From the sequence record PQ159479: a stretch of 50,260 nucleotides of DNA. The stretch is one strand, 5' to 3'. A program made the translations under genes and the position numbers. The notes below the pieces were generated by a model. That model was given only the letters and a program-made list of their open reading frames with translations. It did not search any database and was not told where the DNA came from. Source of the DNA: Escherichia phage Henu4_2. Position 1 is the first letter of the stretch. Every line of letters begins with the position of its first letter. Shown here piece after piece: positions 28,430-50,260 of this stretch.

Positions 28430-28620
28430 AAAGAACAAATTAAATATCTATATAATACATACACTTAGAGTTTAATTATTATTATATATATCTATTTGTA
28501 TTCTTCTTGTTTCTATTGTTCTCTATGGTTTGTAGTGGTTGTGTGTTTTGTATTGGTTGATGGTTATATATCACATGGTATGTATTTATATATGGTATGC
28601 GGCGTAAATGTGTGAACAAT
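28430..28620. repeat. AT- and GT-rich low-complexity intergenic region (control region A)
   Basis: TATATAT runs and GGTTGT/GTTTTGT repeats; related to 49920-50080. Confidence 0.5.
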
Positions 28621-28724
28621 GGAACACAAAAACAACAATTAGCAAAATCATAAACTTACGATGTGATTTTGTTGTCAGTGCTAGTTGTAAACGTATGCAA
28701 AACAAAAAGAACACACAAAGGGTA

Positions 28725-28752
28725 TTGACTACATGCAACAAAGACCTATAAT
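28725..28752 (+). promoter_or_regulatory. near-consensus sigma70 promoter (TTGACT-16-TATAAT)
   Basis: TTGACT 28725-28730, TATAAT 28747-28752; RBS GAGGATGA; ATG 28781. Confidence 0.7.
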
Positions 28753-44603: not shown

Positions 44604-44659
44604 TTGTTGCCGCTAATTATAACGGCAACATTCTACAGCCTTTTAGCAATTCGTGCTAT
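44604..44659 (-). promoter_or_regulatory. conserved early element (minus), stem GTTGCCG/CGGCAAC with TATAAT in loop
   Basis: minus-strand ATAGCACGAATTGCTAAAA then hairpin with TATAAT; RBS AAGGAG. Confidence 0.5.
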
Positions 44660-44904
44660 TTGATCGGCTCAACCCTGGCTAATAACTTTCCGTCTATAAT
44701 GCTATGACATTCAAGAGTTTTAGGATCGAATGCAAGCGAACGATGGAACGTATGACCAATCAGCAAATATGAATGCTTATCCCTGATGCGATAGACCGTT
44801 TCACCTTCCTTTAATGAGGATATCGCACTGAAAACAACCTTGTAACGGTATTTTTGCATGGCCTCAGAACGGTGAGGAATGTAATCTTTTTCCGGTAAAC
44901 TCAT
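44656..44904 (-). CDS. hypothetical protein
   Basis: 82-aa ORF; stop TAG inside the motif. Confidence 0.45.
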   Translation of the reverse strand: MSLPEKDYIPHRSEAMQKYRYKVVFSAISSLKEGETVYRIRDKHSYLLIGHTFHRSLAFDPKTLECHSIIDGKLLARVEPIK

Positions 44905-45263: not shown

Positions 45264-45294
45264 TTGATTTATCTCCTTTTGTTTTCGTTGAAAG

Positions 45295-45339
45295 CATTAT
45301 GCCGGATACGTGATCCGGCGTTTTAACAAAAAGTGCTAT
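45295..45339 (-). promoter_or_regulatory. conserved early element (minus), stem GCCGGAT/ATCCGGC, CATAAT
   Basis: minus-strand AATAGCACTTTTTGTTAAAAC + hairpin + CATAAT + TTCAACGAAAAC leader. Confidence 0.5.
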
Positions 45340-46031
45340 TTCTGATTTGCCAGGCATACAGCAAGCGCAAAGCCGCGCGGAGTGAGTGAGCGGATCAGCT
45401 TTGTTCGCTTAGACTTACCGCCTAGCTTTTGCCAGCCTGGATTGTTGTTCCCTGTTGGCAATACTGCGTTTGTATCCGGCATTACAAAACCGTTACCCGT
45501 CCAAAGGCAAGTTTTTTTGGTGTACGCATCGCGAGCGGGAATGATTTCAGGAAAGTGAGGATGTTTATCATCTTCCGGCAACAGACCGCCAAATGCGCAA
45601 GGATGAAAGATAAAATCAGGTTGCCTCCACATCGACGACAGGACGCTAACAGGATTCTCGATCATGTATGGAACGTTAAACCGATCCGCAATATTGGCAG
45701 CAATCTTTGCCGTTTCAACCGCCTTTTTCTGGAAGTCTGGATCACGTTCACGCTTTGCTGCAAAGTGACGCGATCCGCTAACAGCTAAATCAGTGCATGG
45801 AGGGAATGCAATAATAAAATCTGGAGTGCCAAAGACGCGCATCATTGCGTTATGCTGGAATGATAATCCGATCCACTCATTCAAATAAACGATGTTGGGA
45901 TGAGTCACGCGCACTGATTGGTAATCACCATGATCAGCACCGTCGAAATTAAAGCACAGCACTTTGTGACCACGTTCAGCCCACGGCAACGCAGCATAAC
46001 CAGAACCATCAAATAGTGAGAAAATAAGCAT
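45336..46031 (-). CDS. putative DNA cytosine-5 methyltransferase (short form)
   Basis: motif I-like FSLFDGSGYAA, motif IV-like AFPPCTD, motif VI-like YMIENPV; ATG 46031 with RBS AAAGGA. Confidence 0.55.
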   Translation of the reverse strand: MLIFSLFDGSGYAALPWAERGHKVLCFNFDGADHGDYQSVRVTHPNIVYLNEWIGLSFQHNAMMRVFGTPDFIIAFPPCTDLAVSGSRHFAAKRERDPDFQKKAVETAKIAANIADRFNVPYMIENPVSVLSSMWRQPDFIFHPCAFGGLLPEDDKHPHFPEIIPARDAYTKKTCLWTGNGFVMPDTNAVLPTGNNNPGWQKLGGKSKRTKLIRSLTPRGFALAVCLANQK

Positions 46032-46140
46032 GTTTAAATCCTTTCTGTATGACCTTGTAAGGCGTTTTGTTTGTAGGTGTCGCAACTGTATTGGCTACGG
46101 CCTGAAATCGCGACACGACGCTAAACAGGCCGCTATTTTT

Positions 46141-46218
46141 TTACTTACAGAATGGGCATGTTGTTTTATCCCCGATTCCGCCGTGTTTTGGGCAGCAAAT
46201 TTTTTCGATAGGTGTCAT
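46141..46218 (-). CDS. zinc-ribbon mini-protein (25 aa)
   Basis: MTPIEKICCPKHGGIGDKTTCPFCK with strong RBS AAGGAG 8 nt upstream. Confidence 0.35.
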   Translation of the reverse strand: MTPIEKICCPKHGGIGDKTTCPFCK

Positions 46219-46230
46219 TTTAAATACTCC

Positions 46231-46473
46231 TTAGAATGGGAAACAACGCTTGCAAGATGGATCGAAGTTACAACCGCAATCATTGATTATTGCGTTAGGA
46301 TCAGCAAGCATCACGCTACTTTCTTGATCCATATCCATAGCGCCTAATGCGTCATCAAGCGTTATTTCAAGATAGGCAACTTTAAGCGCCCATTCTTTGT
46401 TAAGTCCAGCCGCCTCCGCTTCATGTAGGCGAGCAAAGAAAGCATCTTGAACCATATCAACCCCACTTCTCAA
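46231..46473 (-). CDS. hypothetical protein with C-terminal Cys cluster
   Basis: 80 aa ending CGCNFDPSCKRC. Confidence 0.45.
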   Translation of the reverse strand: MRSGVDMVQDAFFARLHEAEAAGLNKEWALKVAYLEITLDDALGAMDMDQESSVMLADPNAIINDCGCNFDPSCKRCFPF

Positions 46474-46678
46474 TAAACATGCTCATTTCGTCAATCATCG
46501 CGTAAGCATCACTTTCAGTTATTCGGCGGATTCTACCGCCTGGATGTTCGCCAACAGCGTAACCAGTTTTTACGCGGGTAATCGTTAACTGATGGAATCC
46601 AGAAGCGCGATCCATTTTCAAAACTACTTTCCCGTGAGCTTTGACAATGTTCATGATGGATTCAGTTTTCAGTTTCAT
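46457..46678 (-). CDS. hypothetical protein
   Basis: 73-aa ORF after motif copy; RBS TGGAGAA. Confidence 0.45.
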   Translation of the reverse strand: MKLKTESIMNIVKAHGKVVLKMDRASGFHQLTITRVKTGYAVGEHPGGRIRRITESDAYAMIDEMSMFIEKWG

Positions 46679-46709
46679 TTTTGATTCTCCATTTTGTTTG
46701 TGTGAAAGT

Positions 46710-46757
46710 ATGATACCAATCAGAGCGATATCGTTTTTAGCAATTCGTGCTGTTTAC
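46710..46757 (-). promoter_or_regulatory. conserved early element (minus), TGgTATCAT
   Basis: minus-strand ACAGCACGAATTGCTAAAAA then extended -10 TGGTATCAT. Confidence 0.5.
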
Positions 46758-46904
46758 GGCGATAAACGGATAGCCTGTTAAATCTGCATTTCTATAACGC
46801 GCAGACCTAACCCAACAGCCGCCTTTGCTCATAATTAAAGCGTTTTTATGACGCAGGTTTACGCGGTAAATTCTTCCGGTTTTTATGTTTTTGAAATATG
46901 TCAT
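46737..46904 (-). CDS. small hypothetical protein (55 aa)
   Basis: ATGA-coupled to upstream gene; stop inside motif; below the ORF-track cut-off. Confidence 0.35.
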   Translation of the reverse strand: MTYFKNIKTGRIYRVNLRHKNALIMSKGGCWVRSARYRNADLTGYPFIAVNSTNC

Positions 46905-47098
46905 AGATACGTGATCCTATCTTCTGTTACCCACTCGCAACGCTGGCGCTCAATTGTTTTGCCATATTTTTTATTAATATGATCGCTGTTGTAATCTTCA
47001 AGAGCTTGCAACGCATTTGCTAAATTATTAGCAGTTGCAATAAGTGTTTTATCATTCGCGTCAATTCTGCTAACCAAATAACACGCATAACGGATCAT
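46901..47098 (-). CDS. hypothetical protein
   Basis: 65-aa ORF. Confidence 0.4.
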   Translation of the reverse strand: MIRYACYLVSRIDANDKTLIATANNLANALQALEDYNSDHINKKYGKTIERQRCEWVTEDRITYL

Positions 47099-47328
47099 AA
47101 TTTAACCTCATGATATTCTATAAATTCTTGCACATATGCGCATTCTCGCGGAGACTCCTGGCCTTTTAACACTTCACAGCCACCATTAAACAGATAGCAG
47201 TGCTGGCAAAGGTTGCCGCCTACGTTTTCCTCAGCGATCTGAATTCCGGTACACAAACCGCCACCAAACCTATGAGGAAAATCGTAAGCCTGGCAGCGGC
47301 ACGTTGCTTGATGCCGCTTACGTTTCAT
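47095..47328 (-). CDS. Cys-rich (putative zinc-binding) protein
   Basis: 77 aa with CRC...C..C...C..C...C pattern. Confidence 0.45.
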   Translation of the reverse strand: MKRKRHQATCRCQAYDFPHRFGGGLCTGIQIAEENVGGNLCQHCYLFNGGCEVLKGQESPRECAYVQEFIEYHEVKL

Positions 47329-47609
47329 TAAATGTTCTCACTGATAAACTGGATAACCTGGCGAAGATGTTTTTCATCTTTAATGAATGCTGGCAATTCT
47401 TCCATAACTTCTTTTTTCAGATAAATGTTTGCATTCCATGTGAATGATCCATCACCATTTACGCGGTAAGAACAAAGCCATTCGCAATCATTATCCACTT
47501 CCCAAATGCACAGCGTTTCAAATTCTTCAAACTTGTTGTAACCCGTTTCAATGCTTAACTCAATGCCACGTTTGCCAGCGAAATTAGTAGTTGTTTTTGA
47601 TACCATCAT
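47328..47609 (-). CDS. hypothetical protein
   Basis: 93-aa ORF after motif copy; RBS CCGGAGAA. Confidence 0.45.
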   Translation of the reverse strand: MMVSKTTTNFAGKRGIELSIETGYNKFEEFETLCIWEVDNDCEWLCSYRVNGDGSFTWNANIYLKKEVMEELPAFIKDEKHLRQVIQFISENI

Positions 47610-47640
47610 TTTTAAATTCTCCGGTTCGTTTCGATGAATG

Positions 47641-47686
47641 CATTATGCCAAAACAAACCGGATCGCTTTTAACAAAAAGTGCTATT
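47641..47686 (-). promoter_or_regulatory. conserved early element (minus), CATAAT
   Basis: minus-strand AAATAGCACTTTTTGTTAAAAGC ... GGCATAATG ... TTCATCGAAACGAACC leader. Confidence 0.5.
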
Positions 47687-48545: not shown

Positions 48546-48590
48546 ATTATGCCGGATTGCTCAGGCGATGTTTTAACAAAAAGTGCTATT
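48546..48590 (-). promoter_or_regulatory. conserved early element (minus), CATAAT
   Basis: minus-strand AATAATAGCACTTTTTGTTAAAAC ... GGCATAATAC ... ATCAACCAATAAGGAG. Confidence 0.5.
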
Positions 48591-49015: not shown

Positions 49016-49040
49016 TGCTAAATCCTCATTTCGTTTCGAT

Positions 49041-49093
49041 GGGATAACTATATCAAGTTACCCCGATCCGGTTTTAACAAAAAATGCTATTTA
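49041..49093 (-). promoter_or_regulatory. conserved early element (minus), stem GGGGTAAC/GTTATCCC with TATAGT in loop
   Basis: minus-strand AAATAGCATTTTTTGTTAAAAC + hairpin + ATCGAAACGAAATGAGGA. Confidence 0.5.
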
Positions 49094-49525: not shown

Positions 49526-49556
49526 CGTGAATTCCTCAGTTCGTTTCGATGAAGTA

Positions 49557-49602
49557 ATCATAGCAATTCGTGACTGATTGGTTTTAACAAAAAGTGCTAT
49601 TC
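49557..49602 (-). promoter_or_regulatory. conserved early element (minus) with adjacent half-copy, TATGAT
   Basis: minus-strand GAATAGCACTTTTTGTTAAAACC followed by CACGAATTGCTATGAT and TTCATCGAAACGAAC leader. Confidence 0.5.
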
Positions 49603-49720: not shown

Positions 49721-49770
49721 GAGTTGATGTGATGTGATTTGATTAGATTTGATTAGATTTGAGTAGCGAG
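49721..49770. repeat. five tandem 10-bp iteron-like repeats
   Basis: GAGTTGATGT / GATGTGATTT / GATTAGATTT / GATTAGATTT / GAGTAGCGAG. Confidence 0.5.
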
Positions 49771-49919
49771 AGAGTGGAAATAATCACACCTTGCCGATCT
49801 CGTGAAAACTTTTCCGCAAAACATCACACCCTGGCTTGCGCGTTGTCTAAAACGTTCCACGATGTTCACGGGTTTACCTTCCGTAAAAAAGCGAAACAGA
49901 AAACAACAATGAATCACCC

Positions 49920-50080
49920 TATAACATACTAAAAAGTAAGATAATTTTATTTATATATCTATAAAAGTTTCTAGTTGTTTAGCTTGTTCTCTATATATAG
50001 GGATACCCCACGTATATTTTCTAACTTTATATGGTTATGTGTATGCTCCAGGGTATATGTATATATATGGGTATGTTCCG
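49920..50080. repeat. AT-rich low-complexity region (control region B, related to 28430-28620)
   Basis: shares TATATATCTAT, GTTCTCTAT and TATATATGGTATG blocks with region A. Confidence 0.5.
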
Positions 50081-50199
50081 AAATCGGCGTAGTTTTTGAA
50101 AACGCGCCGCAAAACATTGAAATCAAAGGCGATAAACACAAAAAGGCGTCTAAACAGAACAATATTCTGATTGTAGACATAAGAACAACAGAAAAAACT

Positions 50200-50228
50200 T
50201 TGACTATGCGCCAGCACATCAGCATAAT
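50200..50228 (+). promoter_or_regulatory. near-consensus sigma70 promoter (TTGACT-17-CATAAT) for gene 1
   Basis: TTGACT 50200-50205, CATAAT 50223-50228; ATCAAAACCAATCAGGAGAAAACCCT leader runs to the window end; ATG at position 1 on circularisation. Confidence 0.65.
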
Positions 50229-50260
50229 GCACACATCAAAACCAATCAGGAGAAAACCCT

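Follow-up and report, generated by a model that had tools for sequence, protein, structure and literature searches.

A mobile 25-codon micro-gene for a predicted zinc-binding peptide, and two unrelated cysteine-rich protein families, in Escherichia phage Henu4_2

Very small cysteine-rich open reading frames (ORFs) lying close together in a phage genome raise the question of whether all of them are genes and whether their products act together. This question is posed by Escherichia phage Henu4_2 (record PQ159479; the window is the whole stretch of 50,260 nucleotides that was analysed), where three ORFs with zinc-ribbon-like Cys patterns at positions 46,141 to 47,328 had been read as a cluster of mini-proteins of 25, 80 and 77 amino acids (aa). 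The window is approximately a complete T1-like genome of the genus Tlsvirus (Drexlerviridae, Tempevirinae). All three ORFs lie on its minus strand and their Cys patterns are conserved, and the length of 80 aa proved to be wrong. The Cys content of the products is 20% (25 aa), 5.4% (the supposed 80-aa protein, in fact 74 aa) and 9.1% (77 aa), as compared with a background of ~1.6% that comes from a crude, greedily chosen set of gene-like ORFs of the window, some spurious ORFs included. Since the knuckle-like Cys/His patterns are real and purifying selection is seen in all three products, their reading as small metal-binding proteins is sound at the level of sequence. The explanation that we consider the best, and on balance probable, is that these are three unrelated Cys/His proteins, the shortest of which is encoded by a real, mobile micro-gene and is a zinc micro-protein acting in trans.

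Comparative data show that the 25-codon ORF is a real protein-coding micro-gene under strong purifying selection, equipped with translation signals. The micro-gene was found in 140 phage records by tblastn, and the fetched loci yielded 31 distinct DNA versions and at least 19 peptide versions. Over these 31 DNA versions, the third codon position varied in 24 of 24 codons, the first in 9 and the second in 12, and the sense frame was the only frame open in all of them. The length is fixed at 25 codons from MTP, with TAA, TAG or TGA as the stop, always at codon 26. For the most divergent pairs, the proportion of synonymous differences (pS) was saturated at ~0.9-1.1, as against ~0.25-0.3 for non-synonymous differences (pN). 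Thirteen representative peptides share M1, T2, P3, E5, K6, C9, H12, G13, G14, G16, C21, P22 and C24, and each invariant residue is written by 2-4 synonymous codons. The predicted strong ribosome-binding site was borne out as AAGGAG 8 nt before the ATG, which is overlapped by the TAA stop of the upstream 74-aa gene (46231-46233) to give TAAGGAG. This Shine-Dalgarno sequence and its distance are kept in Tlsvirus, HCF1 and Vc1, and GGAG or GAGG is found in Tunavirinae. The start overlaps the upstream stop as TGATG in Skatevirus and as TAATG in Pseudotevenvirus, where an MKILT extension makes the product 30 aa long.

The micro-gene is nearly always overlooked. Of the 29 non-Skatevirus records listed, 25 carry no annotation for it, and three of the four in which it was called use an arbitrary upstream start (38-44 aa); well-curated genomes such as RB43 and Tls also leave it unannotated. 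A search of a 5.8-billion-protein database with a concatenation of five micro-peptide variants returned no usable relative, which means that this database is blind to ORFs of this size; the same search gave no sign of the micro-peptide motif as a domain within larger proteins. A literature search for the peptide string gave no paper, and no paper describing the three proteins was found. The copy in the window is itself unusual: codon 15 (46174-46176) is ATC (Ile), where the other 30 DNA versions have AGC or AGT (Ser), and no phage record in the collection matches the window's micro-peptide at 100%. Ile15 may be genuine variation, a harmful mutation or an error in sequencing.

Neighbour mapping over all loci placed the micro-gene in five contexts, distributed over Drexlerviridae, Skatevirus and Pseudotevenvirus. 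In context A (Tlsvirus, Hicfunavirus HCF1 and Jhansiroadvirus Vc1) the order is a 73-aa gene, the 74-aa gene, the micro-gene, a spacer of about 108-109 nt and the gene of a Dcm-like methyltransferase. Context B (Henuseptimavirus BubbaBully, Klebsiella phage RCIP0096 and three metagenomic contigs) has the order 74-aa gene, methyltransferase gene, micro-gene, with the micro-gene starting 10 nt past the methyltransferase stop and followed by a terminator-like hairpin. The micro-gene directly follows a gene for a bifunctional nicotinamide mononucleotide (NMN)-adenylyltransferase/Nudix protein in the Pseudotevenvirus phages RB43, Lw1, CfP1 and vB_EcRAM-01 (context C) and a gene for a ParB-like DNA-binding protein in the Skatevirus phages Skate and seszw (context D), and it sits between two small genes of unknown function in Tunavirinae Sfin-1 and BrunoManser (context E). 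It is co-directional with, and close behind, another gene in every context. The micro-gene was also present in 21 IMG/VR loci and 8 metagenome loci, which belonged to the same phage groups where neighbours could be identified, and was absent from 185,579 bacterial or archaeal species genomes and 72,556 plasmids.

Citrobacter phage CF1 DK-2017, a Tlsvirus relative, lacks exactly 92 nt, from the Shine-Dalgarno sequence to the stop of the mini-ORF, with the flanking stop codon and the downstream hairpin intact. These comparisons show the micro-gene to be a self-contained, mobile accessory cassette of 92 nt (Shine-Dalgarno sequence plus 25 codons), which has passed between virulent enterobacterial phages from no fewer than three lineages, namely Drexlerviridae, Skatevirus and Pseudotevenvirus. 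For the Skatevirus seszw, many viable genome-reduced mutants have been obtained by CRISPR-based iterative deletion (PMC9825161). A deletion carried by these mutants swaps the last five residues of the micro-peptide (CPYCK) for unrelated sequence, and the viability of these mutants therefore indicates that the micro-peptide is dispensable for plaque formation on the laboratory host. The junction between the 74-aa and methyltransferase genes appears to be an insertion hotspot, because Escherichia phage JLBYU07 (locus 667-1194) has an HNH endonuclease gene between the 74-aa homologue and the methyltransferase gene, where Tlsvirus phages carry the cassette. In the record of Citrobacter phage HCF1 (NC_054897.1; locus 650-2120), opposite-strand ORFs with identical translations occupy the same or adjacent coordinates, for example 1829-2086 on the minus and 1832-2116 on the plus strand and also inside the methyltransferase region, and fragments of the 77-aa gene match both strands. 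This record seems to contain inverted duplications, possibly as assembly artefacts.

With respect to the metal site, C9, H12, C21 and C24 are invariant and Cys8 is not, being Ala in RB43 and Ile in vB_EcRAM-01; the predicted ligand set is therefore C9-x2-H12-x8-C21-x2-C24, a single tetrahedral C3H site. Its two knuckles, C9-P-x-H12 and C21-P-x-C24, are unchanged in the 13 representative peptides and the 31 DNA versions. Because this C/H/C/C array is invariant, we infer that the micro-peptide would fold around one Zn(II) via Cys9, His12, Cys21 and Cys24, and the invariant MTPxEK N-terminus and the HGGxG loop would be exposed as a binding surface. Less certainly, the micro-peptide would be a trans-acting accessory factor and bind a protein shared by the Enterobacteriaceae, be it a host enzyme, a chaperone or an anti-phage defence component; it would help in nature while being dispensable in the laboratory. 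Action in trans is suggested by the near-total conservation of the 25-residue surface, by its independence of any one neighbouring gene and by its restriction to virulent enterobacterial phages.

The micro-peptide has no match in Pfam, PHROG, NCBIfam or the PDB, and its relationship to known proteins is one of kind. It is shorter than 70 aa, stands alone, is conserved and carries two C(P)XC-type knuckles, CPKH-GG and CPFC-K, with no other domain, and thereby groups with the one-domain zinc-finger micro-proteins of this type. Such micro-proteins, with two C(P)XCG knuckles, are described from Haloferax, where some of them bind no zinc (PMC6562870, PMC10716476, PMC11241148). Like HVO_0758 and HVO_2753 of Haloferax volcanii, the micro-peptide is stand-alone and consists of little beyond one metal site with two CPx[C/H] knuckles. 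Unlike them, it comes from virulent phages, is with 25 aa much smaller and has a first knuckle that ends in His rather than Cys, and there is no sequence homology.

A second likeness is to the zinc-binding region of DnaJ (PF00684), where CPKHGGSG fits the CxxCxGxG repeat with His in place of the second Cys. In an hhalign comparison, residues 8-24 fell on DnaJ zinc centre II with all four ligands in register (C9, H12, C21 and C24 paired with C161, C164, C183 and C186 and the intervening hairpin deleted), with a probability of only 9.7%. The micro-peptide has one CxxHxGxG (residues 9-16) and one bare CxxC (21-24), and thus a total of four ligands and a single centre, where DnaJ has four repeats and two zinc centres; moreover, nothing corresponds to the hairpin of ~10 residues that separates the DnaJ knuckles, GxG is missing from the second motif and the DnaJ hidden Markov model (HMM) gives no match. 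The resemblance is best described as a structural analogy, not homology.

Several observations weigh against the interpretation of the micro-peptide as a zinc micro-protein acting in trans. No specific phenotype has been reported for the truncated micro-peptide of the seszw mutants, and the likeness to DnaJ is statistically poor and is not picked up by Pfam. Guilt by association is weak as well, with uninformative neighbours in Tunavirinae and Skatevirus, and the Ser15 to Ile change that is unique to the window could mean that this particular allele is impaired.

Among the competing explanations, the one that survives best, although we judge it unlikely, is that the micro-gene is a cis-acting leader or upstream ORF, or encodes a nascent arrest peptide, that controls the downstream methyltransferase gene via the hairpin-bearing spacer. 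In Tlsvirus, HCF1 and Vc1 the micro-gene does lie directly upstream of the methyltransferase gene, with a conserved hairpin and no promoter-like module in between, and sequence conservation is known among leader or arrest peptides of ~24 aa, TnaC for example. In the region 46025-46145 of the minus strand a stem of 9-11 bp (GUGUCGCGA...UUGCGACAC) can form, nested with a GGCCUG/CAGGCC hairpin, while the folding z-score of the spacer is only -1.96. Against a role as leader, the hairpin persists in CF1 DK-2017, the relative without the mini-ORF, and conservation of metal-ligand residues is not expected of a leader peptide. Furthermore, the Henuseptimavirus-like phages carry the micro-gene downstream of the methyltransferase gene and before a terminator-like hairpin, and in Pseudotevenvirus, Skatevirus and Tunavirinae there is no adjacent methyltransferase gene and the downstream sequence is wholly different. 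A leader would be constantly linked to one downstream gene and an attenuator; over the five contexts the downstream gene and structure differ, and it is for this reason that we consider a cis-acting leader role unlikely.

Somewhat less likely still is that the three Cys-rich proteins form one functional module, as subunits or as sequential inhibitors of one host target. They are encoded within 1.2 kb on one strand, and the 74-aa gene and the micro-gene are adjacent in Tlsvirus. Between the 74-aa and the 77-aa genes, however, lie three genes of 73, 55 and 65 aa and a promoter-like module, which means that the three are not all immediate neighbours as originally predicted and belong to different promoter-defined units. 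Paralogy among the three proteins was rejected, with profile-profile probabilities of ~1% or less, and in the absence of any detectable relationship the term cluster describes position only. As a functional unit the cluster dissolves into unrelated families in two transcription units with distributions of their own (140, 267 and 531 phage records for the 25-, 74- and 77-aa products). The T4-like and Skate-like phages with the mini-gene showed no 74-aa or 77-aa gene within the flank of up to 3 kb examined, the 77-aa family reaches into Pseudomonas and Bordetella phages, and some relatives keep the 74-aa and 77-aa genes while lacking the mini-gene. On sequence grounds, the 74-aa and 77-aa proteins are separate accessory proteins that would not form one system with the micro-peptide. 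For the three products, searches of Pfam, PHROGs, NCBIfam and PDB sequences gave no homology to characterised inhibitors; that small zinc proteins of this sort inhibit host enzymes is a possibility which the data neither support nor refute.

A further reading, for which we see very little chance, places the micro-peptide in the Lar/RalR family, alleviating type I restriction. The likeness consists of small size, occurrence in phages and CPFC, which the micro-peptide has in common with the N-terminal KPCPFCG of the RalR of the Rac prophage; in addition, the micro-gene adjoins a methyltransferase gene, and four metagenome-derived third-party annotation entries of a 38-aa extended form (DAE45886.1, DAG79302.1, DAM11494.1 and DAG30314.1) bear the name 'restriction alleviation protein'. 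However, PF14354 did not match even at E<=10, neither with the 25-aa peptide nor with extended versions of 30-44 aa, and the hhalign alignment to RalR of Escherichia coli K-12 spans 9 columns around CPFC (probability 59%). In the Lar family an N-terminal CPFCG forms the first knuckle, and the other of the two, CxxC, comes some 17-20 residues further on, whereas CPFC occupies residues 21-24 of 25 in the micro-peptide, whose architecture is thus reversed and truncated. Membership was rejected as a single-knuckle match. RalR itself, 64 aa long, now carries the annotation of a type I toxin DNase.

Finally, the 25-codon ORF might have arisen by chance or be a non-coding element, which would leave the two annotated proteins as the only real ones. 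This might be suspected of a sequence that is mostly unannotated, below the length limits of gene callers and absent from the 5.8-billion-protein database, but it is effectively refuted by the comparative data (codon-position pattern, fixed length, synonymous codons for invariant ligands, five contexts and no Rfam match).

The 74-aa protein is the product for which a length of 80 aa had been predicted. That longer reading began at a TTG overlapping the upstream gene; the homologues and the GenBank records without exception use the ATG (MVQDAFF) as the start, and the gene therefore encodes 74 aa. The cysteines noted at its C-terminus are real, as CGC-x5-C-x2-C-FPF. The protein consists of a conserved helical N-terminal domain (DxFFARLHEAEAAGLNKEWALKVAY), an acidic linker and this C-terminal CxC-x5-CxxC-FPF knuckle. 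In a sample of 21 sequences C62, C68 and C71 of the tail were at least 90% conserved, C60 was replaced in a minority and one homologue lacked the entire tail. The phrog_9323 HMM matched with an E value of 1.4e-45 over residues 7-80 of the ORF as read from the TTG, a stretch that corresponds to the 74-aa form. That family is of 'unknown function', and no Pfam, NCBIfam or PDB relative was found. DNA similarity was found in 267 phage records; this query spanned the 74-aa gene, the mini-ORF and the intergenic spacer, and most matches cover only the 74-aa gene. In every locus examined, the 74-aa gene lies upstream of the gene for the Dcm-like methyltransferase, and this constant synteny suggests a functional link between the two proteins. 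A fusion of the two (a Rosetta-stone link) was not found in these loci. In some records the 74-aa protein is mislabelled as a methylase.

In the 77-aa protein, six or more Cys had been noted and seven are present. Cys 10, 12, 26, 41, 44, 51 and 63 as well as His19 do not vary among 9 close homologues and are conserved to at least 90% over 57 distant ones. These eight conserved ligands could suffice for a pair of Zn sites or for an Fe-S cluster. The phrog_5016 HMM, again of 'unknown function', matched over the full length (residues 1-77, E 1.2e-42), and no Pfam, NCBIfam or PDB relative was found. Close homologues are few, with only these 9, and an exhaustive profile search gave 225 cluster representatives. 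By tblastn the family occurs in 531 phage records, mostly Klebsiella, Escherichia and Salmonella Drexlerviridae, and it is also found in Pseudomonas, Serratia and Bordetella siphophages. AlphaFold2 gave a predicted local distance difference test score (pLDDT) of 39.6 with the 9 close homologues and a confident model only after the distant homologues were added; no solved structure in the PDB matches this predicted fold, and fold searches gave no informative neighbour. A distant homologue of 137 aa (P0152) has an extra N-terminal CPRCGG zinc-ribbon segment, with a sub-threshold match to the Lar_restr_allev family of Pfam (E 1e-4, 23 bits versus a cut-off of 28.6). The longer relatives P0081, P0088 and P0105 (170-235 aa) contain no known domains.

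Within the right arm (42.6-50.2 kb) every gene is on the minus strand. A repeat search (families D1 and D2) revealed 7 copies in this arm of an intergenic module of 45-72 nt, which on the minus strand reads AATAGCACTTTTTGTTAAAA, ~20 nt, TGGCATAAT and then GGAGA and ATG. The module looks like a repeated extended -10 promoter with a conserved upstream box, and part of it is annotated as 'repeat_region' in the record of phage Stevie. The copies split the arm into short units or operons (Table 1). Since no module separates the methyltransferase gene from the 25-codon ORF, it is probably in the same unit as the 73-, 74- and 25-aa genes. In the unit of the 77-aa gene, the 93-, 77-, 65- and 55-aa genes are joined via stop/start overlaps (TAATG at 47326-47330, ATGA at 47095-47098). 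A simple scan for promoters and terminators, including sigma-70 promoters, found fewer matches than in shuffled sequence and missed the module; it was uninformative, and the repeat analysis proved the more useful. No RNA family came up when the entire window was scanned against Rfam.

Table 1. Coordinates of the features in and around the three Cys-rich genes
Feature	Position	Strand	Remarks
25-codon micro-gene and stop, MTPIEKICCPKHGGIGDKTTCPFCK	46141-46218	minus	Predicted single metal site Cys9-His12-Cys21-Cys24
Shine-Dalgarno sequence AAGGAG	46227-46232	minus	8 nt upstream of the micro-gene ATG
Hairpin CGGCCTG...CAGGCCG	46098-46132	minus	In the spacer of about 108-109 nt between the micro-gene and the methyltransferase start
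Dcm-like DNA cytosine methyltransferase (phrog_757)	45336-46031	minus	Adjoins the micro-gene in Drexlerviridae contexts A and B
74-aa protein (phrog_9323)	46231-46455	minus	Upstream of the Dcm-like methyltransferase across Drexlerviridae
77-aa protein (phrog_5016)	47095-47328	minus	Motif CxCxAYxFPHRxxGGxC...CxxC...CxVxxGxE...C
Promoter-like module, all copies	44616-44660, 45269-45340, 46683-46754, 47615-47686, 48546-48590, 49020-49091, 49530-49601	minus	
Promoter-like module	46683-46754	minus	Heads the inferred unit 73 aa - 74 aa - 25 aa - (methyltransferase)
Promoter-like module	47615-47686	minus	Heads the unit 93 aa - 77 aa - 65 aa - 55 aa

Over the 3.3 kb surrounding the three ORFs, identity is 99.6% to Salmonella phage GJL01 and 94-99% to a series of Tlsvirus phages from Salmonella, Escherichia and Citrobacter. 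Some host labels among the related records look doubtful: Streptococcus phage MBBL140 (OR786094.1) is 96-97% identical to the Tlsvirus region, and some 20 'Campylobacter phage' records (MG0656xx series) and 'Pseudomonas phage Motto' have typical enterobacterial Drexlerviridae genes. The 73-aa product (46457-46678, minus strand) is called 'putative polyribonucleotide nucleotidyltransferase' in many related records; no Pfam or NCBIfam match was found, the PHROG entry is of unknown function, and the label is probably a propagated misannotation. Further small Cys-rich ORFs picked up by a crude scan (28608-28751, 49753-49917 and 49971-50234) look like non-coding chance ORFs and were rejected.

Returning to the micro-peptide as a zinc micro-protein acting in trans, phage proteins of comparable size or setting are known. 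The Stp peptide of phage T4 (26 aa) acts on a host restriction enzyme; it is similar in size to the micro-peptide and, unlike it, contains no Cys. Com of phage Mu, a 62-aa zinc-finger protein encoded next to mom, acts on mom mRNA in a cis-linked fashion. It resembles the micro-peptide as a small zinc-finger protein encoded beside a DNA-modification gene, whereas the micro-gene has no modification gene beside it in three of its five contexts. Enki, a predicted zinc-ribbon protein of 52 aa from Vibrio phage 1.080.O, inhibits AbiH and a retron (bioRxiv 10.1101/2024.06.14.598830). By description rather than by sequence, Enki is thus a very small phage protein that is built around a predicted zinc site and can neutralise defence systems, which differs from the micro-peptide in being twice as long and in coming from an unrelated phage group.

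In two of its five contexts the micro-gene adjoins genes of a counter-defence type, namely the DNA methyltransferase and the NAD-salvage NMN-adenylyltransferase/Nudix genes, and an anti-defence role of the micro-peptide is an attractive idea that amounts to an association only. We tentatively put forward, as a possibility of rather low likelihood, that the micro-peptide would be among the smallest known stand-alone metal-binding effectors and would neutralise a single enterobacterial factor, its 92-nt 'plug-in' cassette being traded between phages of unrelated families. This factor may be a defence system, such as a modification-dependent restriction enzyme that would otherwise attack DNA methylated by the adjacent Dcm-like enzyme, or it may be the DnaK/DnaJ chaperone cycle, with the micro-peptide mimicking zinc centre II of DnaJ. 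In the BASEL study no genomic feature explained the differences in restriction sensitivity among Drexlerviridae (PMC8594841), and unannotated micro-genes like the 25-codon ORF could be candidates for the 'unknown factors' behind this gap.

What is new here is a very small mobile micro-protein family that is nearly always unannotated, together with two uncharacterised Cys-rich families. The 77-aa family, with 531 records, a confidently predicted fold that is unmatched and eight conserved putative ligands, makes a separate target for structural genomics. Genes shorter than ~30 codons escape gene callers, and this micro-gene is missing from most of the phage records that carry it; that it could be certified as a gene shows that comparative genomics alone can do so. 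A peptide of 25 residues with 13 invariant positions is, moreover, a concrete target and cheap to synthesise, and a defence or chaperone target, if found, would raise the interest of the micro-gene from moderate to high. Should the micro-peptide turn out to counter defence or to serve host takeover, it would rank with the smallest known factors of that kind, and the accessory-gene catalogues that are used to explain phage host range would be missing a class of determinants.

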